64,000 bases of DNA from an uncultured Alphaproteobacteria bacterium (GCA_934246625.1 CAKQHZ010000001.1:434964-498963), one strand, 5' to 3'; positions 2,634-55,888 are shown, counted from the first letter of the stretch. The notes: generated by a model not told the origin, from the sequence alone. Numbers and translations: made by a program.

Positions 2634-2642
2634 TTTTGCTTC

Positions 2643-2936
2643 CTATGGTGCGAATTTGTTGCCATTTTCTTTTATTATATTTTTTGTTTTTGCCTTTATA
2701 TTATTCCTTGCACGGATAATATTGTCGATGTGAGGGTCGTGTTTTGCAAGTAAAATCAAAAAAAGATGTATAATTATTATTCCAAGTATTGGTATCCATA
2801 TATATCCCATATAGCCAAAGGTTAGGCATAATAGCATTATAACCACGCCAACAGCGATATTAAACATTGCCAAACCAAATGGTGCAAAAAACATTAAACT
2901 TGGATATGCAATAGATTTTAAAAGTTCTTCTTTCAA
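2643..2936 (-). CDS. virB3: Type IV secretion system protein VirB3 (97 aa, two TM helices)
   Basis: Small bitopic membrane protein directly upstream of, and in the same orientation as, virB4 with a 9-nt gap. This is the canonical virB3-virB4 arrangement. Confidence 0.75.
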   Translation of the reverse strand: MKEELLKSIAYPSLMFFAPFGLAMFNIAVGVVIMLLCLTFGYMGYIWIPILGIIIIHLFLILLAKHDPHIDNIIRARNNIKAKTKNIIKENGNKFAP

Positions 2937-3074
2937 TATATTCCCCCCATATATACCTTATTAATTTTACAAAAATAAGCATAAAAAGACAAGTAAAAAG
3001 TTAGAGTTAGTTGGAATATCTTCTCCTTTTATTTTTTAATTATTTTTATAGTATGATTTTGAAAGGAGTTTTTT

Positions 3075-3407
3075 ATGATGGATTTAAAATATTTTCCGCC
3101 AAAGGAAGCTGTGAGGAATGCAAGACTTGGTTTAAAACTTCGTGAAAAGTATCATAGAGGTGGACTTGGGTATGAAGAAGCGGCGGCCCTTGGCATAGAT
3201 AGTGGTGTTGTAAGAGCATATCAGATTATTTCTGGACGACCTTTGACATTACAAATAATAAAACGTATGGCAAGGTTTAATAGACATAGACGAAACTATA
3301 GACCTTTTATTTTGCTTAAAGATGGTGGTCCAACTGCTGGGACTATTGCGTGGCTTTTGTGGGGTGGTGATGAAGGTATAAATTGGGCAATTAACTTTAA
3401 AGAGTGA
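3075..3407 (+). CDS. Hypothetical protein (110 aa). No recognisable domain. GC-richer than its neighbours.
   Basis: Good SD (AAAGGAG) 7 nt upstream of ATG. Fills the gap between virB3 and mucR. Composition roughly 40% GC in the ORF body. Confidence 0.45.
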   Translation: MMDLKYFPPKEAVRNARLGLKLREKYHRGGLGYEEAAALGIDSGVVRAYQIISGRPLTLQIIKRMARFNRHRRNYRPFILLKDGGPTAGTIAWLLWGGDEGINWAINFKE

Positions 3408-7238: not shown

Positions 7239-8357
7239 TTATATTCTCATTGGCATAAGAACATAAATTGCAGATTCGTCATCAAGTTCTGTTATAATAG
7301 CAGGTGATGAGCCATCAGAAATCATAAATTTCATAAATTTACCTTCGATTTGTGATGCAATATCAAGAAGGTATTTTGAATTGAAACCTATTTCCATAGA
7401 ATCGCTGTCGTAAACAACTTCTAAATCTTCAAATGCACTTCCAGAATCTGGAGTTGATGCAAGGAGTGTTAATTTTGATTTTGATAATTTAAGTTTAATT
7501 GCTTTTGATTTTTCGTATGCAACAGATGATACACGGTCAACTGCTTCTGAGAAAAGTTTGCAATCTACTTCCATTGCCTTATCATTTGAAGTTGGAATAA
7601 CCTTTTCATAATCTGGGAAACGACCATCAATAAGTTTTGATGTGATTGTTGTGCCACCGAATGAAAATCTTGCTTTGGTTTCACTTACTTCTACATTTAT
7701 GTCTGATGATGTATCTTCAAGAAGAGCACGAAGTTCGTTCACAACCTTTCTTGGAACAATAATACTTGGCATACCCTTTGCACCTTCTGGGCTTAAAACA
7801 TCTTGACGAGCAAGTCTATGTCCATCAGTTGCAACAGCACGGAGTAATTCCTTTCCATCTTTTTCAAGTGTGTGAAGGAAAATTCCGTTTAAGAAATAAC
7901 GAGTTTCTTCTGTTGATACAGCAAATTTTGTTTTATCAATAAGTTTTATTAAATCATCACATGGAAGAGTGAATTTAAAAGGCATTGATGAGCTATTCAT
8001 TAAAGGGAAATCATCAACAGGAAGTGATGGTAATGTAAATTCTGAATTACCTGCCTTTATAACAACTTTTGAATTATCTGATGATGTTTTAAGTTCGATT
8101 GTGCCTTCTGGAAGTTTACGAACAATATCATATAAAATATGTGCAGGTATTGTTGTTGAACCCTTTTCATTGATTGTTGCTTCTAATTCCTCAATAATTT
8201 CCAAATCAATGTTTGTAGCAGTGAATTTTAAGTTATCGTTTGCTTCGATTTTGATATTTGAAAGAACTGGAATAGTAGATTTTTTTTCAACAATTCTATA
8301 TAAATGAGAAAGTGTTTTTGATAAATTTGCTTTTTCAATAGTAATATACATTTTCAT
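7239..8357 (-). CDS. dnaN: DNA polymerase III beta sliding clamp (372 aa)
   Basis: Length, three-domain clamp signature, MKMYITIEKANLSKTL... N-terminus and C-terminal ...MPMRI typical of DnaN. Confidence 0.9.
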   Translation of the reverse strand: MKMYITIEKANLSKTLSHLYRIVEKKSTIPVLSNIKIEANDNLKFTATNIDLEIIEELEATINEKGSTTIPAHILYDIVRKLPEGTIELKTSSDNSKVVIKAGNSEFTLPSLPVDDFPLMNSSSMPFKFTLPCDDLIKLIDKTKFAVSTEETRYFLNGIFLHTLEKDGKELLRAVATDGHRLARQDVLSPEGAKGMPSIIVPRKVVNELRALLEDTSSDINVEVSETKARFSFGGTTITSKLIDGRFPDYEKVIPTSNDKAMEVDCKLFSEAVDRVSSVAYEKSKAIKLKLSKSKLTLLASTPDSGSAFEDLEVVYDSDSMEIGFNSKYLLDIASQIEGKFMKFMISDGSSPAIITELDDESAIYVLMPMRI

Positions 8358-23416: not shown

Positions 23417-23501
23417 GGGAATGTGGCGGAATTGGTAGACGCGGCGGACTCAAAATCCGCTGGGGCGACCCTTGAGAGTTCGATTCTCTCCATTCCTACC
23501 A
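23417..23501 (+). tRNA. tRNA-Leu (anticodon CAA), class II, encoded CCA
   Basis: Hand-folded: acceptor GGGAATG/CATTCCT (G1-U72 wobble), anticodon stem GCGGA/TCCGC with loop CTCAAAA, long variable arm, T-arm GAGAG-TTCGATT-CTCTC. Confidence 0.85.
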
Positions 23502-23747: not shown

Positions 23748-24056
23748 ATGATGAAAAAATTTCTATTATTTTTTTCTATTTTATTTTGTGTATTTTTCAA
23801 AGTGAATTCTTCCGTTTATGCAACTGTAAGCAGCAATTCTCTTGAAAAAATTCTATTTCAATATTGTGTTCCAAAAGAAGGAAATTGTGATGTAAAAGCC
23901 ACATATAAAAACGGTAAATGTATTTGTCCTGGTGATAAATTATATATGGACAGAGAATGTTTTAAACCTGTTTGTCCTTCTGGAACTTATATCTATTATA
24001 GTAACGACACAGATTCTTGTGGTGCGGGAAATTACAGAACAAAAGTCAGAAATTAA
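23748..24056 (+). CDS. Small secreted Cys-rich protein (102 aa) with a QYCVPxEGNCDVKATY module
   Basis: Signal peptide. 10 Cys in about 75 mature residues. Paralogous to 43731..44147. Confidence 0.7.
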   Translation: MMKKFLLFFSILFCVFFKVNSSVYATVSSNSLEKILFQYCVPKEGNCDVKATYKNGKCICPGDKLYMDRECFKPVCPSGTYIYYSNDTDSCGAGNYRTKVRN

Positions 24057-24150
24057 GTTTATGGGAGAACTACTTTCATAATTTTTGTCTGTTCTCTCTC
24101 CATTTAAAAATTTGTCTTTTATATAATAATCAAACAAAAAGGAGAAGACT

Positions 24151-25227
24151 ATGAACAATAAAAAATATATAATATCGGTAATAGGTGTGTTATCTTTTGT
24201 TGGAATTGCACACGCTGCTATTTTTCAATGCAGAACTTGTGAAGAGGGGACTTATGGTGATGGAACATCTGTAAGTTGCACAAAATGTCCGACTGGGGCA
24301 GTTTGTCCTGAGGGAACTGGAGCACCAATTTATTTATCAAATTATAAAGATAAGTTATTATCTGTATGTGGTGAGATAGGTAAGGAAATTGCAATAGATA
24401 CAGGTTTTTCTTCCAGTAATTTTGTTTCAGAAATGATTGATAAACAAAAAGTAAAAATAAATTATAGTGGAGATATAATTAAAAAGGGAGAAAGTGGTTA
24501 TAATTATGCAAGGGCATATTATGAAGTTAGTTGTTATGATCTTGATGGTTATTATGCAAGTAGTGGATATAAAGCTATTACAGATTTTATTCAAAGCAAA
24601 ATATGTAATGATGAATCAGAAGTAAAAAGTCATTTAGAACCTATGAGTTCATCATCAACTTTAACACCTGGAATATATAGGATTGATGTAGCTGGTGCCG
24701 GTGGTGGCGGTGCAGGTGGAAATGCTTGTGGATGGTGTTATGGAGCTGGTGGAGGTTATGGAGGTAATGGTGATTTGCAGACTAGATATATATATTTAGT
24801 TGATAATCAGCCTTATAATTATGTTGTTGGTGCTGGTGGTGGTAATGGTTGTGGTTCTGGTTGTAATCATCGTGGAGTAAATGGTAAGAAAGGTGGAACA
24901 TCATCCTTTACTTTGTTAGGAAATGTTTTTGAGGCATTAGGTGGAGATGGTGGAGAATCTGCACATAGTGGTTGTGATGTGTCTAATGGTAAAAATGGTG
25001 CTGCTGCTGGTAATGGTTTAGGTGGTGTTGGTGGTGAGAATAGATATGGTAACAAATGTGCTTATGATGGAAATACTGGTTGGGTAAAGATTTATCAAAT
25101 TGGTATGAGAAAAACCGGTTGTCCTTCTTTAAGACCATCTACTTCTTCTGGTGGATGTTCTTCAGGTGGTTATTTTGGCGGTTGCTCTACAGGTGGTTAT
25201 TTTGGTGGTTGCTCAGGAGGATACTGA
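24151..25227 (+). CDS. Secreted Cys/Gly-rich protein (358 aa) with an ephrin-receptor/TNFR-like CxxCxxGTY...CxxCPxG repeat, a glycine-rich domain and C-terminal GGYFGGCS repeats
   Basis: Signal peptide ...GIAHA. CRTCEEGTYGDGTSVSCTKCPTGAVCPEGTG. Gly-rich stretch VAGAGGGGAGG...GGGYGGNGD...VVGAGGGNG... C-terminal GGYFGGCSTGGYFGGCSGGY. Confidence 0.75.
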   Translation: MNNKKYIISVIGVLSFVGIAHAAIFQCRTCEEGTYGDGTSVSCTKCPTGAVCPEGTGAPIYLSNYKDKLLSVCGEIGKEIAIDTGFSSSNFVSEMIDKQKVKINYSGDIIKKGESGYNYARAYYEVSCYDLDGYYASSGYKAITDFIQSKICNDESEVKSHLEPMSSSSTLTPGIYRIDVAGAGGGGAGGNACGWCYGAGGGYGGNGDLQTRYIYLVDNQPYNYVVGAGGGNGCGSGCNHRGVNGKKGGTSSFTLLGNVFEALGGDGGESAHSGCDVSNGKNGAAAGNGLGGVGGENRYGNKCAYDGNTGWVKIYQIGMRKTGCPSLRPSTSSGGCSSGGYFGGCSTGGYFGGCSGGY

Positions 25228-31797: not shown

Positions 31798-31961
31798 ATA
31801 CCCAAAGCCCCAACCTTTGTTGGTTGGGGAGCTGTGGTTATACAACAGGAATATAGTCTTTGCTATAGTCTAAAAGCCTCAGAGTCATTGTAAGTATGAT
31901 TGTTCAACTGCCCGACCACTATCTTTGATATGTGGGTTTATTTTATTAAAGGGAGAAAAAT

Positions 31962-32528
31962 ATGAAAATCATGAACAAAAAATTACTTTTATTATATATG
32001 TCTTTATATCCTTGTATAACAAATGCAAATGTATATATGTGTTTGCGATGTCCTGTTGGAACTTATGGTGATGGAAAATCATCATATTGTTCACCTTGTC
32101 CAAAAATAGATGGAGCACATTATTTGGAAGATTCAAAGAATTGTGAATGGGAGTGTGATGAAGGTAAAGTTGTTGTTGCAAAATATGCGAATGGTGGAGG
32201 TTGTTGCACTGAACCAGCTAAACCAAAATGTCCTTCTGTTAAAGTTTATGTTTTCGGTAACTGTTCAGGTTCGGGTTCTCATGGAGGATCTTGTCAACTT
32301 CAATATTCAAAAACTTTGGAATGTGGAGAAAGTTTTCAAAATGATGGGAGTGCGACAAATACACCAAATGGACAATATGATTGTATAACGATGGCTTGTA
32401 GAAGCGGAGGTTTTGTTAAAAATATTAATGGAGAAATGTGGTGTTATAAAGACTCCTATGATATGAAAAAAAATAAAAATGGACGTCATTATGATAGGTC
32501 AGGTGATGCTAAATGTCTAAAAGAGTAA
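31962..32528 (+). CDS. Secreted Cys-rich protein (188 aa) with ephrin-receptor/TNFR-like CLRCPVGTYGDGKSSYCSPCP repeat
   Basis: Signal peptide. 25 Cys. SD AAAGGGAGA. Motif shared with 24151..25227 and 44255..44908. Confidence 0.7.
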   Translation: MKIMNKKLLLLYMSLYPCITNANVYMCLRCPVGTYGDGKSSYCSPCPKIDGAHYLEDSKNCEWECDEGKVVVAKYANGGGCCTEPAKPKCPSVKVYVFGNCSGSGSHGGSCQLQYSKTLECGESFQNDGSATNTPNGQYDCITMACRSGGFVKNINGEMWCYKDSYDMKKNKNGRHYDRSGDAKCLKE

Positions 32529-40941: not shown

Positions 40942-41778
40942 ATGCAAAAATTTTTTAAAAAAGTTTCTTTGATTTTTGTTTTGGGATTGGTTAGTGCTTG
41001 TTCATCTAATGTAAAACAAGATAATGTTGCTCCTCGTGTGGTGGCGGAACTTCCTGTGTTTGAATATAAGGAAACTGAAGTTATTAGCAATGATAATGAC
41101 AATATAGAGCAAACAAAACAAGAAAAGTATTTTTCAACAAAATCTGAATATGATGGAAAAATGCTTTATAAAGAAGTGGAAAAACAAGTCAAAAAAGTTG
41201 AACTAAAAAAGAAGGTGATTAAGCCTGTGTATGATACAGAAAATCATCCTATTAGTTTAGATAAAAATCAAGTAAAGCAAGTTATTAAACAAATTTCTTC
41301 TAGTCCTGATTTTGTTGATGGTGTTGAATATAAGGATAAAAATGTAAAGGCTTTGATGGAAAATTATCAAAATATCCTTAAAACTTCTTATAGTTGTTGT
41401 GTTGTAAATATTGCAGAAGAATTAAAGCATCGTGGAGTTTCCAAAGAAAGTATTGTTCAATTTTTAAAATTTGATGCTGAGGAATTTGCTTTGCAAAATA
41501 TGTGTATTGTTGTTGATGATAGTGATATTAACGATGTTTATGGAAATAAACTTTTGACAGAGGTTGTTGCAAAATCAAAAAATAGTTGTATTTGTAATAA
41601 TGCTGAATTTTTAAAACGAAATATTGATAATTTTTATAAAATTTATAATATGAAACCTGAGTTATATAATGAAGTTTTAGTCTATAGATTTAAGGATAAA
41701 AAGGGTCGTATTGTTGAGCATGATATAAATGAAACAGTCCTTAATATTTCAACAATTTTGAACAGTTGTGTAAAGTAG
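40942..41778 (+). CDS. Hypothetical lipoprotein (278 aa) inserted between skp and lpxD
   Basis: Lipobox LGLVSAC at residues 15-21. No recognisable domain. Confidence 0.55.
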   Translation: MQKFFKKVSLIFVLGLVSACSSNVKQDNVAPRVVAELPVFEYKETEVISNDNDNIEQTKQEKYFSTKSEYDGKMLYKEVEKQVKKVELKKKVIKPVYDTENHPISLDKNQVKQVIKQISSSPDFVDGVEYKDKNVKALMENYQNILKTSYSCCVVNIAEELKHRGVSKESIVQFLKFDAEEFALQNMCIVVDDSDINDVYGNKLLTEVVAKSKNSCICNNAEFLKRNIDNFYKIYNMKPELYNEVLVYRFKDKKGRIVEHDINETVLNISTILNSCVK

Positions 41779-42924: not shown

Positions 42925-43380
42925 ATGGAAAAAAATGTATTATATATTGATGATATAAAAAAGATATTGCCACACAGATATCCTTTTTTGCTTGTTGATA
43001 GAGTTATTGATATTGTGCCTGGACAATCTGGAACAGGTATTAAAAATGTAACAGTTAATGAAGAATTTTTTAATGGACATTTTCCTTCTTCTCCTGTGAT
43101 GCCTGGGGTTTTAATGTTGGAAGCAATGGCTCAAACAGCGGTGCTTGTTGGTGCAACAGATGAAACTGAGGAATTAAAGGGACAAATCGTATTTTTAACA
43201 GGAATTGATGATGCAAAATTTAAAAATAGAGTTATTCCTGGTGATCAACTTCATATCAAAGTTGAAAAATGTTCACAAAGAGGTGCTTTTGAAAAATGGA
43301 AAGCTGCAATCTATGTTGATGACAAACTTTGTGTATCTGCAACTTTGAGTGCTATGAAATCAGGTAAAACAAAGGTTTAA
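42925..43380 (+). CDS. fabZ: 3-hydroxyacyl-ACP dehydratase FabZ (151 aa)
   Basis: IxxxLPHRYPFLLVDRV...HFP..PVMPGVL..EAMAQ catalytic motif. Confidence 0.95.
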   Translation: MEKNVLYIDDIKKILPHRYPFLLVDRVIDIVPGQSGTGIKNVTVNEEFFNGHFPSSPVMPGVLMLEAMAQTAVLVGATDETEELKGQIVFLTGIDDAKFKNRVIPGDQLHIKVEKCSQRGAFEKWKAAIYVDDKLCVSATLSAMKSGKTKV

Positions 43381-43406
43381 ATTTTTATTATTTCAGTTAT
43401 TAAAGA

Positions 43407-43435
43407 AGGGTGTTAATTTTTTAACACCTTTTTTT
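43407..43435 (+). terminator. Rho-independent terminator after fabZ (GGTGTTAA-TTTT-TTAACACC plus T7)
   Basis: Perfect 8-bp stem followed by TTTTTTT. Confidence 0.75.
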
Positions 43436-43730
43436 GTTGCTTAAATCTTTATTATGTAATATCATAAAATTAGATTTGGATTTATCCAAGTTTAGCGTCC
43501 ATAGGTGGACGTGGGACTGTCGTAAGTTCTTTATATACTGCCGTATGTTATTTTACATACGATCTTTGTCCCCACCTTTAGTGGGGAGTCTTTGGTGTAT
43601 GTCCAGAGGATATTTTTATATTCTTAAAGACCAAGGAAATCATCTTGCAGTATATATGATTTACGAACTCCCCGCCATTTATGTGATAAATGGGAAAAAT
43701 TTTGTGATACACAAAAAAGGGGAAGAAACC

Positions 43731-44147
43731 ATGAAAAACTTATCTAAAGTACTTTGTATTTGTGCGGGGGCTATCTCGGCAAATCCTATTAACCTTCAGG
43801 CTAAAACTTTGCTTGAAACCTTGACTCAATACTGTGTTCCGACGGTTGGCAACTGCGACAAAAAGGCTACCTACAATACCTCTGGCAACTATTGCGATTG
43901 TGCCAACATCAACAAATTCTATAACTCTTCGAATCGTTCTTGCGAGAACTGTATCCTCGGCTCTTTCGCAACCTCAGACTATAAAACTTGTGAGCCTATT
44001 CATTGCCCTGACGGCTATGTTGCGACTTTGATTTCCAAAGGGGCGTGTCCAGATGGCTATACTTTGCAACAAATCAATGTGGCTTCGGGTTGTGGCGAGG
44101 GTTATGCGTTGAAGAAGTATAATCCGGCGACGAAGAGTTTTAATTAA
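43731..44147 (+). CDS. Secreted Cys-rich protein (138 aa), paralog of 23748..24056 (QYCVPTVGNCDKKATY module) but with a GC-rich codon style
   Basis: SD AAGGGGA before ATG 43731. Signal peptide MKNLSKVLCICAGAISA. The ORF body is about 43% GC against a genome background of about 30%. The upstream part of track ORF 43434..44147 is rejected as leader. Confidence 0.7.
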   Translation: MKNLSKVLCICAGAISANPINLQAKTLLETLTQYCVPTVGNCDKKATYNTSGNYCDCANINKFYNSSNRSCENCILGSFATSDYKTCEPIHCPDGYVATLISKGACPDGYTLQQINVASGCGEGYALKKYNPATKSFN

Positions 44148-44254
44148 AGATATGGGCGGGAGTTTTTTATCATAGTCTTGCTTCCGCCCTCCCAGATTGG
44201 CACTTTTGAAGAGGGGGAGGTGTCAAGGAAGAAACACCCTCGAAGGAGAAAAAA

Positions 44255-44908
44255 ATGAAAACCATGAAGAAAAAGAAATTAGCGGTGATAGGGATAGCGG
44301 GAATGCTCTCTGCAACACCTGCCTCCGCTCAAACATTTTATCAATGTATGCCTGTAAAGTGTAAAGCAGGAGAGTATGTAAGTGGAAGTAGTTGTGAGCG
44401 TTGCACTGGAGGTTATCGTTGTCCAGGAGATAATAAAAGGTATGCGTGCACAGGCGAATGGGAATATGCAACACCAGGAAGTTCATACTGCTCTACCTTT
44501 GGCCCAAGTGATGTTCGTATTTGGGTTGGTGGTGGCTGTGCTGATAGAGATAGAAACGATCAAGCTCTAATGTCTAAGTTAGTGCCAATTACATCTTTTT
44601 CTACAAAGAAGGAAAATGGTCAAACAAAATATATTACAAACTTTAGTATTCTATCAGACAGAAACAAATATGATAGATCAGGTTTCTTTAATTGTTTAGA
44701 TAATAATTTTAAAAAAAAATATACTTCACAAGAACAATGGTGTAAATATGCAAGTATTACTCTTTTAACAACTCCAAATGCTGGTGGTTCATCAGACTTT
44801 ACCGTAAAACAATATAGTAAAGTATATGGAACGTTAGAGTTTCGATCTAGTTTTGAGTGTTTAAGATTAGGTCCAGGCGGTGGTTGTGCAAATAAATGTA
44901 ATAATTAA
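44255..44908 (+). CDS. Secreted Cys-rich protein (217 aa) with ephrin-receptor/TNFR-like CKAGEYVSGSSCERCTGGYRCPG repeat. Compositionally mosaic.
   Basis: Strong SD GAAGGAGA. Signal peptide ...ATPASA. The 5' 330 nt are about 43% GC and the 3' 320 nt about 25% GC. Confidence 0.7.
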   Translation: MKTMKKKKLAVIGIAGMLSATPASAQTFYQCMPVKCKAGEYVSGSSCERCTGGYRCPGDNKRYACTGEWEYATPGSSYCSTFGPSDVRIWVGGGCADRDRNDQALMSKLVPITSFSTKKENGQTKYITNFSILSDRNKYDRSGFFNCLDNNFKKKYTSQEQWCKYASITLLTTPNAGGSSDFTVKQYSKVYGTLEFRSSFECLRLGPGGGCANKCNN

Positions 44909-44940
44909 AAAAAAGCCCTCAAATGAGGGCCTTTTTAATT
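44907..44940. terminator. Bidirectional rho-independent terminator (GCCCTC-AAAT-GAGGGC) between convergent genes
   Basis: Perfect 6-bp GC stem flanked by A8 and a T-run. Lies between the 44255..44908 stop and the 44948..45352 (minus) stop. Confidence 0.75.
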
Positions 44941-44947
44941 TTGAGGT

Positions 44948-45352
44948 TTATTCCCAACCTGATGTATCGCTTAGACCACCGTATGTTTGTTGGATATTGT
45001 TTTTACCTTCTGGGTCAGCCATATATGATACGATAAAGCCAGCAACTCCAAGAAGAACAAGTGCAACGATTAACATAAATAATTTTTTCCAGTCAATGTC
45101 TCCTTTTTCGATAGCATTCCATGCATATCCTAAAAATGCAACAGCAGCAACAACGAATAATGCATTTCTTGTATATGCGAATAGTTGGCTTCCACGTTGT
45201 AAGAATCTTTCAAAAGGACCAGTTTTTCCGGTTGTTACAATCTCACTTCCAGTTTGTGCAAGAACATCAACAGGAACCATAAACATAAATGCAACTAAAA
45301 TACCAAGACATACAAGTGTAGATTTTTTAGTTAAAAATTTGAATATTGACAT
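44948..45352 (-). CDS. virB2: Candidate VirB2/TrbC-family T4SS pilin (134 aa)
   Basis: Long signal peptide ending VDVLA/QTG, then two hydrophobic helices separated by a short charged loop (…ALFVVAAVAFLGYAWNAI-EKGDIDWKK-LFMLIVALVLLGVAGFIVSYMA). This is VirB2-like topology and size. Confidence 0.5.
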   Translation of the reverse strand: MSIFKFLTKKSTLVCLGILVAFMFMVPVDVLAQTGSEIVTTGKTGPFERFLQRGSQLFAYTRNALFVVAAVAFLGYAWNAIEKGDIDWKKLFMLIVALVLLGVAGFIVSYMADPEGKNNIQQTYGGLSDTSGWE

Positions 45353-45419
45353 TATTTTTTCTCCTATCCGTTAATATCTTAGACAATTATATCAAAATTT
45401 GTATGGTAAAGCAAGTTTT

Positions 45420-46031
45420 TTATTTTGATGTGATGGTCTTTGGTTTTGCATAATGAGGCTTTATATATAATGCCTCTATCTCACCTTGGATAAAGGTTTT
45501 TGGGTCAAATGTTTTATCAAAATATTTTAAAATTTTAGGGGCATTGATTTTTGCAGTTATTATATTATCACCATTTAAAAAGTCAGAAATGATTGTTTGG
45601 TTTAAATCTATTTCCTCCTTTTTTATAAGTTTATGTGGAATAGTTTCCAAACCATTTTTATCAAGTTGGGTAAAGTAGCAATCATTCCCGCCTGCATTAA
45701 GGGCAATATTGTATTGTGGTAAGTTTTTATCATTAAGGCTGTGATATAATGCTTCGAAATTATTGATACATATCACAGGAGTGTTTGTTGCGATTAAAAA
45801 ACCCTTTATTACAGAAAGTCCAAGGCGGATTCCAGTAAATGATCCAGGTCCCACATTTACAACAATAAAATCCAAATCAGAAATTTTTGTGCCGTTAAGA
45901 GTTGATGAAATTGCATCAATTATTTCTTCGGATTGGCTTTTTTTTCCATCAGAAATAAAATCGACTATTTTATCATTATTTTTAAAACAAATTTCAAGTA
46001 ATTGATTTGATGTGTTTATGTAAAGGGATTT
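45420..46031 (-). CDS. tsaB: tRNA threonylcarbamoyladenosine biosynthesis protein TsaB (YeaZ)
   Basis: MKSLYINTSNQLLEI... and the VNVGPGSFTGIRLGLSV motif. About 200 aa. Confidence 0.8.
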   Translation of the reverse strand, partial: KSLYINTSNQLLEICFKNNDKIVDFISDGKKSQSEEIIDAISSTLNGTKISDLDFIVVNVGPGSFTGIRLGLSVIKGFLIATNTPVICINNFEALYHSLNDKNLPQYNIALNAGGNDCYFTQLDKNGLETIPHKLIKKEEIDLNQTIISDFLNGDNIITAKINAPKILKYFDKTFDPKTFIQGEIEALYIKPHYAKPKTITSK

Positions 46032-50922: not shown

Positions 50923-51888
50923 ATGTCAAATGAAGTTTTAAATTCAGCTCTTAAATATCTGGCGAATTGGTATATGCAATCTAATATAGAAGAAGTTGCT
51001 GTAAATAGGGCTGGTGAAGTATGGCTTAGACTTCGTGGAAAGCGTGAAATTCCGTGGGTTATGGAGCCTGATAAACATTTATCAAAACAATATTTGACCG
51101 ATATAATGAATATTATTGCAAATACTTATGAAGTGCCTTTTGACCCATCTGTGGGAATACCTGTTGTATATGCAACTTTGCCTGGCGACCATAGATTTTC
51201 TGGGATTGCAGGGAAAAATGTTTTATATGATAATGATGATATAGAAGGGGGAATTGCCCTTGCAATTAGAACGAAAAAGGATAGTGTCGATTTTAATTTT
51301 GCCGATTATGGCCTTGTAAAGGGTGAGGAGCTTAAAAAACTTTCTTGTGAGGAGGAAGTACTTTCATCTGACCCATATCAAAGATTGATGGATTTTATTA
51401 AACGTGGCGACCATATTTTGATAAGTGGTGCAACTGCCACTGGTAAGACAACTTTTTTGAATAATATTTTGAAGTTGCTAAGTCCAAATCTTCGTGTGAT
51501 TACGATTGAAGATTCAAGAGAATTGATTGTCCCACAAAAAAATCATCTTCATTTGTTGTTGTCAAGAACGACTCAAACAAATATGTTTTCATATAAAGAT
51601 GTGATTGATTTAGTTGTTCGTATGACACCAGATGCAATTATGGGTGGTGAAATTTCAACGGAAAATGCTGGTGCAATTTGGGAATTGATGGGAACTGGAC
51701 ATAAGCATTTCTATGCAACTATACATGCAGAATCTGTTGAAGGAGCGTATGAGGCCTTTATTGATAGAATTTTGCATACCTTTCCAGAATTGGATCAGGA
51801 AAAAACATTGGCTGAAATGAAAAAGAAACTTCACGTTGTGCAAATTGGTCGTGAAGGAAATATCAGAACAATTACAGAAATTGCATAA
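50923..51888 (+). CDS. virB11: Type IV secretion system ATPase VirB11 (321 aa)
   Basis: Walker A GATATGKTT, Asp/His boxes (…VITIEDSRELIV…), size and N-terminal domain typical of VirB11/TrbB. Confidence 0.85.
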   Translation: MSNEVLNSALKYLANWYMQSNIEEVAVNRAGEVWLRLRGKREIPWVMEPDKHLSKQYLTDIMNIIANTYEVPFDPSVGIPVVYATLPGDHRFSGIAGKNVLYDNDDIEGGIALAIRTKKDSVDFNFADYGLVKGEELKKLSCEEEVLSSDPYQRLMDFIKRGDHILISGATATGKTTFLNNILKLLSPNLRVITIEDSRELIVPQKNHLHLLLSRTTQTNMFSYKDVIDLVVRMTPDAIMGGEISTENAGAIWELMGTGHKHFYATIHAESVEGAYEAFIDRILHTFPELDQEKTLAEMKKKLHVVQIGREGNIRTITEIA

Positions 51889-52258: not shown

Positions 52259-54352
52259 TTATTGTCCATATTTATGGTCAGGATTTGCATCTTCAATCAT
52301 TTGATCCATTTCATCTTCAATTCTTAACATAACATCGTTTTGAAGAAATACCATAATTCGTGTTCCCGCAGCAACGGTAAATGGAATGCTTGTTTGTGCA
52401 CTTTGGTCAATTAACTTTTGCATAGTTGTTTTCCAATTTTGCTCGATTTCCAATTTCATTTTATCCTTTGATGACATATTTGCTATTGTTTGTGTATCAG
52501 TTGGGGACCAGCCATATTCAGGTTGGTTTTCTGTATTAATTACGTCAGATACATTTTCTCCATCATCATTTATAAATGTATCTAATGCTTGATATGTTCC
52601 ATCGGAACGTTTTACACGTGTTACAAATTGAGAAGAAGTTGGGAATAATGCTTCCATTGCAACAGGAAGAACAGAATAAAGTAATGGTTTTACGAATAAA
52701 TCACGCATATATTCGGTATCGTTTTTACCTGCTACACCCTGACGACCTTGGGCATCTGCAGTATAGTTAACAACTTGAGTTAAATCAAATTCGGCACCAT
52801 CTGGACGTATAAGTCGGTCCCATTCTATGCTGATTTTTTCAATTTCTTGAAGACCTGCACCTTTAGGAGCGGTTGCTTTTCCAATAAGTTGTGAGCCAGC
52901 AGGGACAATAATTGTGCGTCCATCACCACCATAAACATTTCGTTCAACCGTTGCAACGGCAGGTGTTTCGTTTTCAAAATTTGTTCCATCATTTTCAGCA
53001 TAATCTATATTGCCGAAGTAAATTGGTCTGTTTAACACAGCTGGAATTGGTTTTGATTGACGAAGAACGTATCTTTCATCCTTTGGCATAGAAGATACTT
53101 GACCAGTGCTTGTTATAGTAAATGGAATAAGTGAGTTTTTTTGTTTGCCAATTATGTTTAATGGGTCGTCTGCCTTATATAAATCATAGTCAACATCTTT
53201 TCCACCATAACCTTCTTGTTTCACAGCAAGGCGGTTGTTCCAAACATCTTCGAAATTTGGATTAAAGTTTTCGGAATTGATTGTTTGCATTACCTCGTCC
53301 AAAACAGGAAGAGTTAGTTCAATTCTTTTTTCTTCGGATTTCTTTTTATCAAATACGGCACCCTTTCCAATGATTTTTCCAGTTGCAGTTTCAAGGACCA
53401 TTCCGTCTTCTTGAAGTGAGCCGATTATTTTTGAACAATTTGGTGAAAATACATCATTATTTGATTGAACCCAACCAATAAATGTTCCAGAAAAATCATA
53501 GGCTTTACTTGCATATTTCTTGCAATCGCTTGGATATACAGTTCTTTTTTCTTGTGCCTTTGGTGTGATTGCAGGAGCCACTGCATTTGTGAATTCTTCG
53601 ACTTCTTCCTCGTCTGCTGGTTCTATATCTTCATTATCATAGATTTCTTCATCATCATCTTCTTCAAAAAATTCATCTACTTTCTCTTGTTGTTGAGGTT
53701 GTGTTTGCACAGGTGCAGGTTTTTCTATTGAAGAGATTGATAAATTGACCTTGAAACTTTTTTCGGGTGAATTTTCGTTAGTATTATTTAGTTCATTATA
53801 TTTTATAAGTATAAATATATTTTTATTTTCAACCTTTGTAGGGGTCCAAACAACATTTATTATACATCCAGATTCTGGTGTAATTGATGCTCTTTCAGTG
53901 CAATCTTGGTCAAAGCCAAGTCCATTTACAGATGTTGATAATGAAATATTGTTAATTTTGATTGGATTATTTGCAACAGATAACATAATAGAGTTAAATG
54001 TTTCATTTCCAATAATTATATTTTCAAATTTTATATTTTGTGGGTCTGCAGTTAAAATAGGTGAAATATAAGTGAAATTTTGAGTTGTTTCCTTTTTTGT
54101 TTGTGCTGGGGTAGATGGAGTTTGCTCTATGGTTTCAATCTTTTTATTTGTTTGGTTTGCTGTGATAATAGCTCCTAATACAAAAATGCCAAGCATTACA
54201 AATGCGATAAAAAGCAAAATGATATTTGTCTTTTTTGTGGCAAGTTCAGATTTGCTTTTTTTATCGTTTGGAAGCATTTCCGCATTTTCTTCTGATGTTG
54301 AAGAAGATGGAGTATTTGTTGCTTTACCCTTTTTCTTAAATAAATCTACCAT
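52259..54352 (-). CDS. virB10: Type IV secretion system protein VirB10/TrbI with an unusually long (about 450 aa) N-terminal/periplasmic linker region (697 aa total)
   Basis: N-terminal cytoplasmic tail plus TM helix. Acidic/Pro-Gln-rich linker. C-terminal barrel motifs RTIIVPAGSQLIGKA...ISIEWDRLIRPDGAEFDL...DAQGRQGVAGKND...IPFTVAAGTRIMVFLQNDV. Confidence 0.75.
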   Translation of the reverse strand: MVDLFKKKGKATNTPSSSTSEENAEMLPNDKKSKSELATKKTNIILLFIAFVMLGIFVLGAIITANQTNKKIETIEQTPSTPAQTKKETTQNFTYISPILTADPQNIKFENIIIGNETFNSIMLSVANNPIKINNISLSTSVNGLGFDQDCTERASITPESGCIINVVWTPTKVENKNIFILIKYNELNNTNENSPEKSFKVNLSISSIEKPAPVQTQPQQQEKVDEFFEEDDDEEIYDNEDIEPADEEEVEEFTNAVAPAITPKAQEKRTVYPSDCKKYASKAYDFSGTFIGWVQSNNDVFSPNCSKIIGSLQEDGMVLETATGKIIGKGAVFDKKKSEEKRIELTLPVLDEVMQTINSENFNPNFEDVWNNRLAVKQEGYGGKDVDYDLYKADDPLNIIGKQKNSLIPFTITSTGQVSSMPKDERYVLRQSKPIPAVLNRPIYFGNIDYAENDGTNFENETPAVATVERNVYGGDGRTIIVPAGSQLIGKATAPKGAGLQEIEKISIEWDRLIRPDGAEFDLTQVVNYTADAQGRQGVAGKNDTEYMRDLFVKPLLYSVLPVAMEALFPTSSQFVTRVKRSDGTYQALDTFINDDGENVSDVINTENQPEYGWSPTDTQTIANMSSKDKMKLEIEQNWKTTMQKLIDQSAQTSIPFTVAAGTRIMVFLQNDVMLRIEDEMDQMIEDANPDHKYGQ

Positions 54353-54373: not shown

Positions 54374-55888
54374 TTATTGAGTCCTTACAACACTGCATGG
54401 AACACTTTGAAGTGAAAGTTTTTGACATATTTCATCAGCAACTTCTATCTTTGCAAATGGTCCAATTCTTAGGCGATAAAATTCTCCGCCGTAATATCTT
54501 TGTTGTCCGATTTCATCAACACCACTTGTTTCAACAGAATAGAAAGGTGTGTATTCGTCAAGCCATGGAAGTTTTTCAGTTAATTCAAGCCATTTGTTTT
54601 CAAGGTCGACAACTGACTTTCCTTTAAAGACTTCTACACTTACGTTTTGTGAATTTTGTTTTACAAGTGGAACGTAGTGGTTTGGAAGCACAGATGCGTT
54701 TGTCTTTGTTTTTGGTAAAAGTGAGTTATATATAATTTCATTTTCTTGAGATGTATAAGGTTGCATACCTCCCATAGGATAACCACCAACCATATTTGTC
54801 ATAGGGTATGACAAGTTTTGTGGATACATATATGCACCAGTTGTCATATCTCCAGCATAGCCAGTTGTAAGCATCTCTTGTCCAGACATATAATTTCCAG
54901 ATAATGTTGCGTTTGCATCACCAATGTTTCCAGCAACTGCAACCAAATCTTGTGGAGGTGGTGGATTAGAGAGCAAGTATGGTTTTGAACGAAGTTTTAT
55001 ACAAACAATTCTTTGTCCGTTTCGTAAAACCAAATCGCCGATAGCTTCAACAACAAGAAGACGGCTTTGTGGACCTTCGGTTCGTGAACCTACAGGAGTT
55101 TCGCCACCTTCGACCAATAATGAAACTACAGGTCGTTGATTCATATTTAATGCCTTTTCACCGAAGTCAATGTATGTGAAAATTTGATCACGCCATACAC
55201 GTTCAGGTGCAATTACGTAATCATCAGGATTTGGAACGAATACATCTAAATCAAAACGAAATTCTGTTGGGTCAACATTTATACTTTTTATCCAACCGAA
55301 ATCTTCGCCTTCCCAATCATTATCACCCACATCTTTGAAACTTTGTCCGCCCATCATTGATTTTGATGATACAAAGTTGTTTGATGAACCAGATGAAGAT
55401 GCACCGTTGCTTCCTTTTCTGTATTTATATGGAACAGAAATATCAATTACAGAAGAGGTAATTTTTTCAGAATTAAGTGGTTCTGATTTTAGGTAAAAGA
55501 CATATTTATTTCCACTGTTTCCGAAAATGAATAGGTTTGTATCAGCCATTGCACGACCATCAACAGGAGAAATCATAAATGTATTTTTTTCAACTGGACG
55601 ACCATCAAAGAAATCCTTGTCCCCGACATAAGCGTCCTTTATGGTTTCCCATTCTGGGAAGTTAATGATTGTTAACATACCATCACGAAGTTTGATAGGC
55701 ATAACTGATCCTGGTTCCCATTGTATTTTTTGGAAACCTGGTTTTGTTTGGTTTTCTCCCATATTTTGCATTGGGTTATCCCATGCGTTTTGTGTTCCAA
55801 AACCAACCCCAGGAACAACTTCTTGAGAATAAACTGGAGCTGTTAAGAGTGAAAATATTAAAGGTAAAATTTTAAAAATATTTTTCAT
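54374..55888 (-). CDS. virB9: Type IV secretion system protein VirB9 fused to a C-terminal SPOR-like domain (504 aa)
   Basis: N-terminal VirB9/TrbG signature (IQWEPGSVMPIKLRDGMLTIINFP...TNLFIFGNSGNKYVFYLK). C-terminal 80 aa (...FYSVETSG...FYRLRIGPFAKIEVADEICQKL...VPCSVV) resemble a SPOR peptidoglycan-binding domain. Confidence 0.8.
   Translation of the reverse strand: MKNIFKILPLIFSLLTAPVYSQEVVPGVGFGTQNAWDNPMQNMGENQTKPGFQKIQWEPGSVMPIKLRDGMLTIINFPEWETIKDAYVGDKDFFDGRPVEKNTFMISPVDGRAMADTNLFIFGNSGNKYVFYLKSEPLNSEKITSSVIDISVPYKYRKGSNGASSSGSSNNFVSSKSMMGGQSFKDVGDNDWEGEDFGWIKSINVDPTEFRFDLDVFVPNPDDYVIAPERVWRDQIFTYIDFGEKALNMNQRPVVSLLVEGGETPVGSRTEGPQSRLLVVEAIGDLVLRNGQRIVCIKLRSKPYLLSNPPPPQDLVAVAGNIGDANATLSGNYMSGQEMLTTGYAGDMTTGAYMYPQNLSYPMTNMVGGYPMGGMQPYTSQENEIIYNSLLPKTKTNASVLPNHYVPLVKQNSQNVSVEVFKGKSVVDLENKWLELTEKLPWLDEYTPFYSVETSGVDEIGQQRYYGGEFYRLRIGPFAKIEVADEICQKLSLQSVPCSVVRTQ

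Follow-up and report, generated by a model that had tools for sequence, protein, structure and literature searches.

A GC-rich island that follows the fabZ gene was analysed in a 64,000-nucleotide (nt) stretch of DNA from an uncultured Alphaproteobacteria bacterium (GCA_934246625.1, CAKQHZ010000001.1:434964-498963); this whole stretch is called the window, and positions are counted from its first letter. The island carries two small genes, here called A and B, and is probably one copy of a lineage-specific two-gene A-B cassette, which occurs at several loci of an uncultured, AT-rich gut alphaproteobacterium and has a core homogenised between the copies. An earlier note, made from the nucleotides of the window, had described the island as a foreign module that replaced lpxA-lpxB and was recombined onto the native 3' part of gene B near position 44590.

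The cassette is predicted to be an operon that consists of a promoter, a ~270-nt leader RNA, gene A, a 107-nt spacer, gene B and a bidirectional terminator, in this order. Its parts are as follows (aa, amino acids; GC3, GC content at third codon positions):

43409-43435, plus strand: intrinsic terminator of fabZ and left border of the cassette, GGTGTTAA/TTAACACC plus a T run
43437-43465, plus strand: putative promoter TTGCTT-17 nt-TATCAT (inferred)
43462-43730, plus strand: conserved structured leader RNA, the 5' untranslated region (UTR) of gene A, with 5' hairpins, a C-rich/G-rich switch-like hairpin, a three-way junction, hairpin P4 and a G-rich Shine-Dalgarno (SD) sequence
43564-43679, plus strand: core motif of the leader with the three-way junction, covariance model R1 (106.6 bits, E = 1e-24)
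43731-44147, plus strand: gene A, a predicted secreted Cys-rich protein of 138 aa with 12 Cys (GC3 0.468, mature part 0.504)
43828-44385, plus strand: dispersed repeat and homogenised core (mature A, spacer and the first ~43 codons of B), starting from 43713 in A138-type copies, ~0.55-0.67 kb
44148-44254, plus strand: structured A-B spacer of 107 nt with two hairpins and the SD sequence GAAGGAG at 44242-44248
44255-44329, plus strand: signal peptide of B, MKTMKKKKLAVIGIAGMLSATPASA/Q (the stroke marks the cleavage site), near-invariant across the whole B family
44330-44530, plus strand: Cys/Gly-rich N-terminal module of B (aa 26-92) with the pattern CxxGxY...CxxCxxGY, near-invariant within the B217/B221-225 subfamily (alignment A5)
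44531-44908, plus strand: variable C-terminal domain of B (aa 93-217 and stop), AT-rich, with native codon usage (GC3 0.12)
44909-44936, no strand assigned: bidirectional terminator of B and of the convergent virB2-like gene, right border of the cassette, a 12-bp stem with GCCCTCAAATGAGGGC and T runs on both strands

The related sequences all stem from gut metagenomes, namely human Hadza samples and metagenome-assembled genomes (MAGs) of other animals. In these, blastn found the core 93-98% identical at other loci, next to quite different genes, and over all comparisons the core identity between loci is 93-100%; within the 64-kb window there is no other DNA copy of the island. The homology begins at 43713 or 43828 and ends at 44347-44385. 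An identical A protein of 138 aa is encoded on 19 contigs from at least five different loci, B genes at other loci are 93-100% identical over their first 90 nt, and an A-like gene is followed by a B-like gene ~90-210 nt downstream in every locus examined. The loci can be told apart by their flanking genes:

Locus 1: fabZ on the left and the virB2-like gene on the right (window, L001; the fabZ-A junction also in L103)
Locus 2: glycosyltransferase/DnaJ/XerC on the left and TraT on the right (in L091) (L008, L009, L091)
Locus 3: RNase E on the left (L092, L095, L099)
Locus 4: MltA on the left and fructose-bisphosphate (FBP) aldolase on the right (L096)
Locus 5: dsbA on the left and rpsD on the right (L097, L098, L102; L004 is a variant)
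Locus 6: Mtd_N on the left and TraT on the right (L100, L101)

Four of these loci (L095, L096, L097 and L100) were recovered from one Hadza sample, deep inside contigs of 186-454 kb and at 52.6-55.2x coverage. Their equal coverage indicates a single genome, and the same species carries five or more cassettes (five to six loci) next to unrelated housekeeping genes. When the four copies were compared with the window in 50-nt bins, the identity was 96-100% from 43731 to ~44280 and 70-100% from there to ~44380, the lower values reflecting a small indel in the signal peptide. Outside the core it was 24-86% upstream and 0-48% downstream, except for a B217-related tail at the dsbA locus (up to 88%). 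The leaders and the B tails are locus-specific, and the core is shared. L004 had been considered as a different species with an 'ultra-conserved' spacer, and this was dropped, as L004 and L103 lie on one contig of 387,812 bp and L103 is 96-100% identical to the window; the spacer identity of L004 therefore reflects concerted evolution within one genome.

The dispersed copies would exchange sequence by homologous recombination and gene conversion, which would homogenise the core, and the same recombination would yield patchwork 5' ends of B and chromosomal rearrangements; the mechanism that the earlier note had called unclear can be narrowed to this process. The 5' regions of B are patchworks. 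In L093, B combines the RNase E-locus-type MPITCPAGSYLLNG with the B217-type SSCERCTGGYRC, and the protein P0053 is of the AT-rich A212 type with the last ten residues of the window type. Flanks are also exchanged across the core: the right flank made up of a 169-aa gene (minus strand), TraT, a 408-aa gene, accB and accC is found, together with its B type, on three left flanks. In different samples, this TraT flank is joined to fabZ-A138 (L090), to glycosyltransferase-A185 (L091) and to Mtd_N-A138 (L100, L101), and the B tails stay with their right flank. The re-associated flanks reflect large-scale rearrangement at the repeat or else chimeric contigs. Taken together, the patchworks and flank exchanges suggest conversion tracts with variable end points and ectopic crossovers, some of which could be assembly chimeras. 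A related observation is P0056, known as protein only from a 10-kb ENA contig, which is an in-frame fusion of A residues 1-92 with the last ~63 residues of a B217-type protein and represents either a natural A-B deletion or an assembly artefact.

Because the repeat breaks short-read assemblies, contig ends cluster at the core, and those of L002, L003, L007, L008, L009, L010, L011, L013, L093, L102 and L103 lie in A, in the spacer or at the start of B. The core repeat would explain why contigs repeatedly break, and possible rearrangements arise, when these organisms are assembled from metagenomes. It could also be asked whether the island or its spread over several loci is itself a mis-assembly or a binning chimera, given that the sources are metagenomic, that a 0.6-kb repeat can mislead short-read assemblers and that the fabZ-TraT junction (L090) is seen on a single contig. 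Such an artefact is extremely unlikely. The order fabZ-A-B-virB2 recurs in L001, fabZ-A in L090 and L103, and B-virB2 in L002, L003 and L007, from different samples and assemblers; the four loci of the Hadza sample lie deep in their 186-454 kb contigs at equal coverage, and both a diverged leader and a B tail of its own are found at each locus.

The base composition of the stretch was measured in sliding windows and by codon position. The region 43436-44590 has a GC content of 41.6% versus 32.4% across the 64-kb window, and both the top 500-bp window (start 43831, GC 46.0%; runner-up 41.8%; mean 32.5%, standard deviation 3.7%) and the top 1155-bp window (start 43471, GC 42.1%; runner-up 39.5%) fall here, so that the GC-rich island of the earlier note is real. 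By part, the GC content is 34.9% in the leader region (43436-43730), hardly above background, 43.2% in open reading frame (ORF) A (43731-44147), 47.7% in the spacer (44148-44254), 43.8% in B up to 44590 (44255-44590) and 28.3% in the rest of B (44591-44908). Gene A is indeed the GC-rich, Cys-rich gene (138 aa, 12 Cys, 43.2% GC) that had been pointed out before. The abrupt drop near 44590 is present too, with a fall from 0.44 to 0.27 over ~44550-44650 and values of 0.44, 0.34 and 0.265 in successive 200-bp windows. A known structured RNA gene was considered as the cause of the GC peak and rejected, as Rfam (with gathering and E-value thresholds) and ARAGORN found none in the island.

Third codon positions give a different right-hand limit. 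GC3 is 0.468 in ORF A and 0.504 in mature A alone, compared with 0.204 +/- 0.038 (highest value 0.30) in 57 other ORFs of the window, which gives z = 6.9 for ORF A; the first 27 codons of B have a GC3 of 0.48. From ~44336 to 44590, GC3 is near background (0.235), and the GC contents of first and second codon positions (GC1 and GC2) are 0.48 and 0.58; this part encodes a module rich in Cys, Gly, Ala, Pro and Arg. The 3' half of B (GC3 0.12) encodes a domain rich in Lys, Asn and Ser. The GC rise therefore has two causes: synonymous sites in A and in the first 27 codons of B, and codon positions 1 and 2 in ~44336-44590, which is GC-rich solely through its amino-acid content. Since GC3 is at background from ~44336 and GC1 and GC2 are high, the drop at 44590 is a change in amino-acid composition, caused by the end of the Cys/Gly/Ala/Pro/Arg codons, and not a change in the origin of the DNA, and the foreign/native breakpoint assigned to this position has to be given up. 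The synonymous and non-coding GC excess is confined to about 43790-44335, within the homogenised core, and codon usage deviates, as is looked for in genomic islands, only over this part. A 'GC island' in an AT-rich genome thus need not be foreign: part of it can be amino-acid composition and part a tract of concerted evolution.

The same limits bear on the proposal that a horizontally transferred GC-rich fragment displaced lpxA-lpxB and fused a foreign 5' half to the native 3' half of 44255-44908 at ~44590. This proposal is in line with the real anomaly in GC and GC3, with the presence or absence of the insert among relatives and with the modular structure of gene B; against it, GC3 has returned to background by ~44336, the fall at 44590 reflects amino-acid composition, and the homology boundaries lie at 43713/43828 and 44347-44385. 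The relatives also speak against a replacement. Related loci were fetched with the FabZ protein from species-representative genomes, and 13 MAGs of uncultured gut Alphaproteobacteria (human, vole, rumen, termite) have a FabZ 74-90% identical to that of the window; the order rseP-bamA-skp-(278 aa)-lpxD-fabZ is kept in most of them. Nine relatives have a contig that runs well beyond fabZ, and in none of them, including three without the cassette, is fabZ followed by lpxA; in the remaining four of the 13, the contig stops within about 850 nt of fabZ. A tblastn search with LpxA gave no match after fabZ in L010-L022 nor anywhere in the 64-kb window, the only hit being the paralogue LpxD (27-31% identity). 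In ~55 loci of distant proteobacteria, the same search placed the start of LpxA (40-55% identity) no more than about 200 nt from fabZ; these control matches validate the query, an E. coli LpxA.

At the fabZ site, the A/B cassette is present in L010, L012, L013 and L018, inverted in L020 and lacking in L014 and L019, in which a DedA-like gene comes directly next, and in L015, in which an unrelated 657-aa protein follows. Presence and absence at the same site among relatives is what is looked for in a genomic island, and the description of a compositionally odd accessory insert in a conserved envelope cluster stands, seeing that some relatives have it, L014 and L019 do not and L020 has it inverted. 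As lpxA is absent after fabZ with or without the cassette, nothing was replaced by the island, and this part of the earlier note falls with the synteny of the nine informative relatives. The absence of lpxA after fabZ is a trait of the clade, independent of the island, and the slot after fabZ is nonetheless a variable site. No integrase, transposase or insertion sequence (IS), tRNA, or flanking direct or inverted repeat was found within 43000-45500, which agrees with the lack of integrase, IS element and direct repeats reported before, and the island has no phage or plasmid similarity by blastn or tblastn. On this evidence, a foreign fragment fused at ~44590 is very unlikely.

The GC enrichment of the homogenised core would most simply be either a by-product of recombination (GC-biased conversion) or the result of the spread of one GC-rich allele. 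Divergent paralogues of A in the same species have native GC3 values, namely 0.21 in A212 (dsbA locus, L004), 0.22 in P0054 (recR locus) and 0.165 in gene 23748 of the window. The latter belongs to a divergent AT-rich cassette (23748-25227, plus strand) with an A-like gene (23748-24056, 102 aa), a spacer and a B-like gene (24151-25227, 358 aa), with GC3 values of 0.165 and 0.12; its B-like gene matches the glycine-rich domain PF21722. This cassette directly follows tRNA-Leu (23417-23501), has a short leader without the three-way-junction motif and keeps the hairpin after A (GGGAGAAC/GUUCUCUC). Where all three encode the same amino acid (55 codons), GC3 is 0.49 in the A of the window, 0.13 in A212 and 0.25 in P0054, and the branch of the window has 13 AT->GC versus 1 GC->AT third-position differences, the direction of change being taken from the AT-rich state of all more distant homologues.

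In another species, L010 (GC 31.8%), FabZ is 90% and BamA 78% identical to those of the window, and the A gene (7825-8224), inside which the contig ends, is only 50% identical to the A of the window and has a GC3 of 0.40-0.44 versus a background of 0.19-0.26. The recurrence of a GC3-rich A in L010 favours a process tied to recombination and counts against a single import. Recombining bacterial genes are reported to tend to higher GC3 (Lassalle et al. 2015; PMC4450053). GC-biased conversion may thus be what raised the GC content of the core, a possibility to be taken seriously without being called probable; if it is causal, the core would allow a debated force in the evolution of bacterial base composition to be tested within one genome with unusual clarity.

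In the case of an import followed by spread, a GC-rich allele comprising A, the spacer and the B 5' end would have come from a GC-richer relative and been copied by unbiased conversion, so that the GC excess is the un-ameliorated signature of the donor. GC-richer members do exist in the clade (L018 and L020 with about 36%, L021 and L022 with 53-56%), AT-rich divergent paralogues coexist with the GC-rich copies, and the anomaly is limited to one allele family. No donor was found, however; the A family is tiny (69 clusters), its close homologues are all in genomes of ~32% GC, and the A of L010, only 50% identical and from a species of ~32% GC, is GC3-rich as well, so that either a further import or a very early one that withstood AT-biased decay would be required. 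An import is therefore considered doubtful.

Selection on the nucleic acid itself, with GC-ending synonymous sites in A kept for expression or for RNA or DNA structure, is improbable. The spacer and leader do hold conserved structures, and C-ending two-fold codons (AAC, TAC, TGC, ATC, TTC) are frequent in A. Yet IF-2, NusA, trigger factor, ClpP and the atp genes have GC3 values of 0.17-0.22, A also uses GCG, ACG, CCG, TCG and TTG, the coding region of A folds no better than its shuffles (z = -0.32), and paralogues with the same amino acids are AT-rich. Codon optimisation and RNA structure within A were accordingly rejected as causes of the high GC3, given the background GC3 of expressed genes, the z of -0.32 and the AT-rich paralogues.

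Gene A has no match to any family of Pfam or NCBIfam. The A family comprises only 69 clusters in a profile search of 1.84 billion representative proteins, and a metagenome scan with an alignment of 6 A sequences added one locus only (L094). An AlphaFold2 model of A, built on the same 6-sequence alignment, has a predicted local distance difference test score (pLDDT) of 38.9 and is unusable.

Upstream of A, the leader RNA that the earlier note had described as structured is strongly folded and covaries. The region from the fabZ terminator, also named by that note and found as a hairpin at 43409-43435 both by reading the sequence and by a terminator scan, to A has a minimum free energy of -95.2 kcal/mol (z = -6.87 versus shuffles). 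Sequences in front of A-like genes from other species and loci can be aligned with this region (alignment A3), and RNAalifold of five species gave 50 pairs, 18 of them compensatory. A TTGnnn-17-TATnAT element occurs at the same alignment position in the leaders of L010, L012, L013 and L018 (alignment A3); the putative promoter at 43437-43465 scores below the consensus threshold of the promoter scan. In the three-way junction, helix P1 is UGGGGAG/CUCCCCG, helix P2 is UCUUUGG/CCAAGGA and encloses a conserved GUAUGUYCAGAG, UCUUAAAG and a variable hairpin, and helix P3 is AGUCAU/AUGAUU.

The covariance model R1 of this core motif was built from 7 sequences and gave 21 matches in 261 kb, each of them upstream of an A-like or a B-like gene. 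Matches outside the training set were L011, L020 (minus strand), L092, L094-L104 and 31807-31919 of the window. With the filters off, no R1 score above 15.5 bits was obtained in the rest of the 64-kb window besides the two true copies. The distance from the 3' end of the motif to the start codon is 43-185 nt in the 12 leaders checked. Across 13 distinct sequences, 94.1% of the cells of R1 are paired versus 39-53% with slid partners, 17 of the 31 pairs are compensatory with double changes, all 8 pairs of P2 covary, and none of 500 shuffles reaches these values. The alignments were fitted to the model, which somewhat favours the structure, and the independent MAFFT/RNAalifold results agree. Of the 4227 families of Rfam 15, none matches the leader; with a cut-off of E = 5, the stretch 43380-44360 gave a single hit, to the L20 leader, which is below threshold (E = 0.99) and covers the fabZ terminator (43380-43441).

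The leader could control translation through two C-rich elements that pair with a G-rich element and with the G-rich SD sequence. A C-rich CCCCAC just 5' of P1 can pair with the G-rich strand of P1, and the SD sequence GGGGAAG, which is unusually rich in G, is complementary to CUCCCC, the 3' strand of P1. In the minimum-energy folds of the leader variants, the SD sequence is paired to one of the two C-rich elements in 11 of 11 cases. These folds suggest that the SD sequence is sequestered by default, which would imply an activating factor. The second copy of the motif in the window is:

31807-31919, plus strand: second leader-motif copy, about 91.5 bits, 5' of a solo B-like gene (31962-32528)

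This solo gene encodes a Cys-rich B-like protein of 188 aa and has no A gene, and the leader is therefore not tied to A as such. A shorter variant, UUUGGGGAG...CUCCCC with a different interior, was seen at 5781-6000 of L005 and upstream of A185 in L008 and L091; it was missed by R1 and may be a second class of the motif.

The spacer between A and B was predicted to form two hairpins. Hairpin 1 (44154-44189), directly 3' of the A stop codon, has the stem GGGCGGGAGU/GCUUCCGCCC and the loop UUUUUAUCAUAGUCUU, followed by the tail UCCCAGA. It folds in seven of seven cassettes (z = -2.2 to -4.4), and its stem differs in each of them. The stems of the seven cassettes are GGGCGGGAG/CUUCCGCCC, GGGAGAAC/GUUCUCUC, GGGGUUGAAG/CUUCAACCUC, GAGAGUAAG/CUUACUCUC, GGGUGAAG/CUUCACCC and GGGAGGAAG/CUUCCUCCC, the last of which is found in two cassettes, L013 and L018, with different extended stems. 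The large loop keeps UUCAURGUCUU, and most cassettes keep a 3' tail like UCCC(G/A)A. Hairpin 2 (44197-44226), UUGGCAC/GUGUCAA, covaries with UUGCUGU/ACAGCAA of L005. Two spacer hairpins had been proposed before: GGGCGG/CCGCCC was found again, and the arms of GAGGTGT/ACACCCTC are present, but the minimum-energy fold pairs UUGGCAC with GUGUCAA instead. These elements could serve in mRNA processing or stability or in the control of B translation. Both RNA structures, of leader and spacer, are conserved and absent from Rfam 15, and the leader has strong covariation and a plausible SD-sequestering architecture.

ORF B (44255-44908) encodes a predicted secreted protein of 217 aa. The consensus of the signal peptide in the B family is MKTMKKKKLAVIGIAG(VAG)ML(Y)SAT(A)PASAQTFYQCMP, with a cleavage site of signal-peptidase I type (ASA/Q). 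Behind it, the family has CxxGxY...CxxCxxGxY repeats and then at least five unrelated C-terminal types. Full-length orthologues are 78-88% identical, and in many other homologues the similarity is limited to the first 26-47% of the query (55-86% identity). Members of the B217/B221-225 subfamily hardly differ over aa 1-92, even when their tails have an identity of only about 30%, so that there is a second, subfamily-level boundary of the B217 module near aa 92, at about 44530, close to the compositional drop. Gene B is thus mosaic, as had been claimed, insofar as a conserved 5' module is joined to different 3' parts; the foreign/native junction at 44590 was not borne out. The split comparison of the two halves, which the earlier note had called for, likewise supports modularity and places the homology boundaries at 44347-44385 and, for B217, at ~44530, in place of 44590.

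Among B-family members, matches vary between PF07699 (Ephrin_rec_like), PF23091 (TNFR_ELAPOR1_6th) and PF07562 (NCD3G), and others match the glycine-rich PF21722. With these TNFR/ephrin-receptor-like models, the B of L020 scores E = 1.8e-19 with five repeats, and the paralogues P0022, P0026 and P0027 score 1e-5 to 1e-6. The B of the window appears to be related to these repeats by family linkage only. A PDB sequence search with a B profile gave no match, the AlphaFold2 model of B (14-sequence alignment) has a pLDDT of 43.6 and is unusable, and a literature search for bacterial ephrin-receptor-like proteins found nothing relevant.

B was compared between strains of one species (window, L001, L003 and L007). 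Over aa 93-217, the synonymous divergence (dS) is 0.15-0.19, the non-synonymous divergence (dN) 0.146-0.234 and dN/dS 0.77-1.53; the flanking genes of the same strains have a dS of 0.00-0.07 and a dN mostly <=0.007 and at most 0.02. The differences in the tail cluster in patches (alignment A1) and involve all four bases. In the first 43 codons, 0 to 2 non-synonymous changes were counted versus L001 and L003, and versus L007 there is a divergent patch at aa 34-39 (dN 0.06). The B tails are hypervariable and evolve very fast between strains. A and B would be exported, disulfide-bonded proteins of the envelope or the extracellular space under diversifying pressure from host, phage or competitors. 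For a polymorphic toxin with its immunity protein, there is no conserved small downstream ORF and no toxin domain in Pfam; the genes downstream of B at various loci, all on the minus strand, are virB2, a 169-aa gene, rpsD and FBP aldolase.

Variation in patches of the C-terminal domain of B could also arise from a diversity-generating retroelement or from site-specific inversion in place of point substitution and recombination. An Mtd_N-domain protein adjoins the cassette in L100 and L101, and a XerC-like recombinase lies 1.6 kb from another cassette. There is, however, no template repeat of the 3' region of B within the 64-kb window, no reverse transcriptase or invertase in the Pfam lists precomputed for the genes of the L001 locus (10 kb on each side of B) or in the scanned ORFs of the window, and no inverted repeat around the promoter or the gene; the strain differences involve all four bases and are not adenine-specific. 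Such a device has only the slimmest chance of being at work. The Mtd_N protein itself has 376 aa and carries PF18454 (the N-terminal domain of a phage major tropism determinant); it lies at 2234-3364 (minus strand) of L100 and at 2208-3338 (minus strand) of L101, and no reverse transcriptase was seen near it in the 8 kb fetched.

Several points weigh against the reading as a homogenised multi-locus cassette of secreted proteins whose core became GC-rich by recombination. The direction of the synonymous changes rests on an unrooted comparison of three sequences, and the A of L013 has a native GC3 (0.19) though its contig also breaks at the start of B. The B of the window has no Pfam match at E <= 0.1 and no NCBIfam model. 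With the structure models of A and B unusable, the signal peptides, the Cys patterns and the rate of evolution are the only clues to function. The related sequences were all assembled from metagenomes, where some flank exchanges could be chimeras at the ~0.6-kb repeat, and transcription, secretion and conversion are all read from sequence alone.

A wider reading is put forward tentatively, in which the core is a hot spot of ectopic conversion with GC-biased repair and the family is under an SD-sequestering, riboswitch-like leader that tunes variable secreted TNFR-like proteins. If true, it would be a sharply bounded case of biased conversion, with synonymous GC raised ~2.4-fold in a genome of 32% GC. 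More generally, A and B form an unannotated, fast-evolving family of secreted Cys-rich proteins, A without any family and B with eukaryote-type TNFR/ephrin-receptor-like repeats in its family. Its members in widespread uncultured gut Alphaproteobacteria are candidates for interaction with host, phage or competitors.

Multigene families of variable surface proteins, such as vsp/vlp/vsa of Mycoplasma and vsp/vlp of Borrelia, combine a conserved 5' UTR and a conserved signal peptide with mature parts that vary. The A-B cassettes are similar in being dispersed, in their near-identical DNA for the 5' end and signal peptide, in their divergent C-terminal parts, and in their fast evolution and recombination between copies. 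As in a variable family, a near-identical 5' module is present in several copies per genome (at least four loci in one sample) and is followed by a divergent, fast-evolving mature part. Unlike in the vsp/vlp families, each cassette has its own promoter and a diverged leader, and nothing suggests a single expression site with silent cassettes; B has a signal-peptidase I site (ASA/Q) and not a lipobox; no invertase, homopolymer tract or tandem-repeat switch was seen at the cassette; and a constant partner gene, A, is inside the homogenised unit. A search for an on/off device found no inverted repeats bracketing the promoter and no repeat tracts, each copy having its own leader and SD sequence.

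Likewise, the core follows the trend described by Lassalle et al. (2015; PMC4450053), with a GC3 excess inside the recombining tract and AT-rich paralogues that do not recombine. The signal described there is a genome-wide statistical trend, whereas here it would be a sharply bounded tract of ~0.5 kb with ectopic conversion and a ~2.4-fold GC3. The B of the window has the CxxGxY...CxxCxxGxY spacing of TNFR/ephrin-receptor-like repeats (PF07699, PF23091, PF07562), which its paralogues match, but in contrast to those proteins it is a small bacterial protein, predicted to be Sec-secreted and below the Pfam thresholds.

The leader resembles the cis-regulatory leaders of Rfam as a 5' UTR of ~120-270 nt with a three-way junction, conserved unpaired nucleotides, covarying helices and SD-complementary elements, and differs from them in that the regulated genes encode secreted Cys-rich proteins in place of metabolic or transport functions. 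Integron cassettes likewise consist of an ORF followed by an imperfect inverted repeat, with a variable stem, a preserved hairpin and several loci; no IntI integrase was found near the island, there is no array, and GTTRRRY core sites are not conserved. In contrast to the variable centre of attC, the loop of the spacer hairpin is conserved, and the hairpin stands between A and B and not at the boundaries of the cassette. The cassette thus appears to resemble known multigene families of variable proteins, and the proteins, the leader RNA and the sharply bounded GC effect appear to be new.

Two features of the neighbourhood are added here. Between skp and lpxD, an ORF of 278 aa (40942-41778), with the N-terminus MQKFFKKVSLIFVLGLVSAC, has no Pfam or NCBIfam match and is kept at this position in most gut alphaproteobacterial relatives at 38-57% identity. 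On the far side of the island, the VirB2-like pilin gene that the earlier note had recognised (44948-45352, minus strand) matches PF04956 at E = 3.4e-7. The type IV secretion genes do not form one operon but stand dispersed among housekeeping genes: besides the VirB2/TrbC-like gene at 44948-45352 (minus strand), a VirB11-like ATPase of the T2SSE type lies at 50923-51888, TrbI/VirB10 at 52259-54352 (minus strand) and CagX/VirB9 at 54374-55888 (minus strand).

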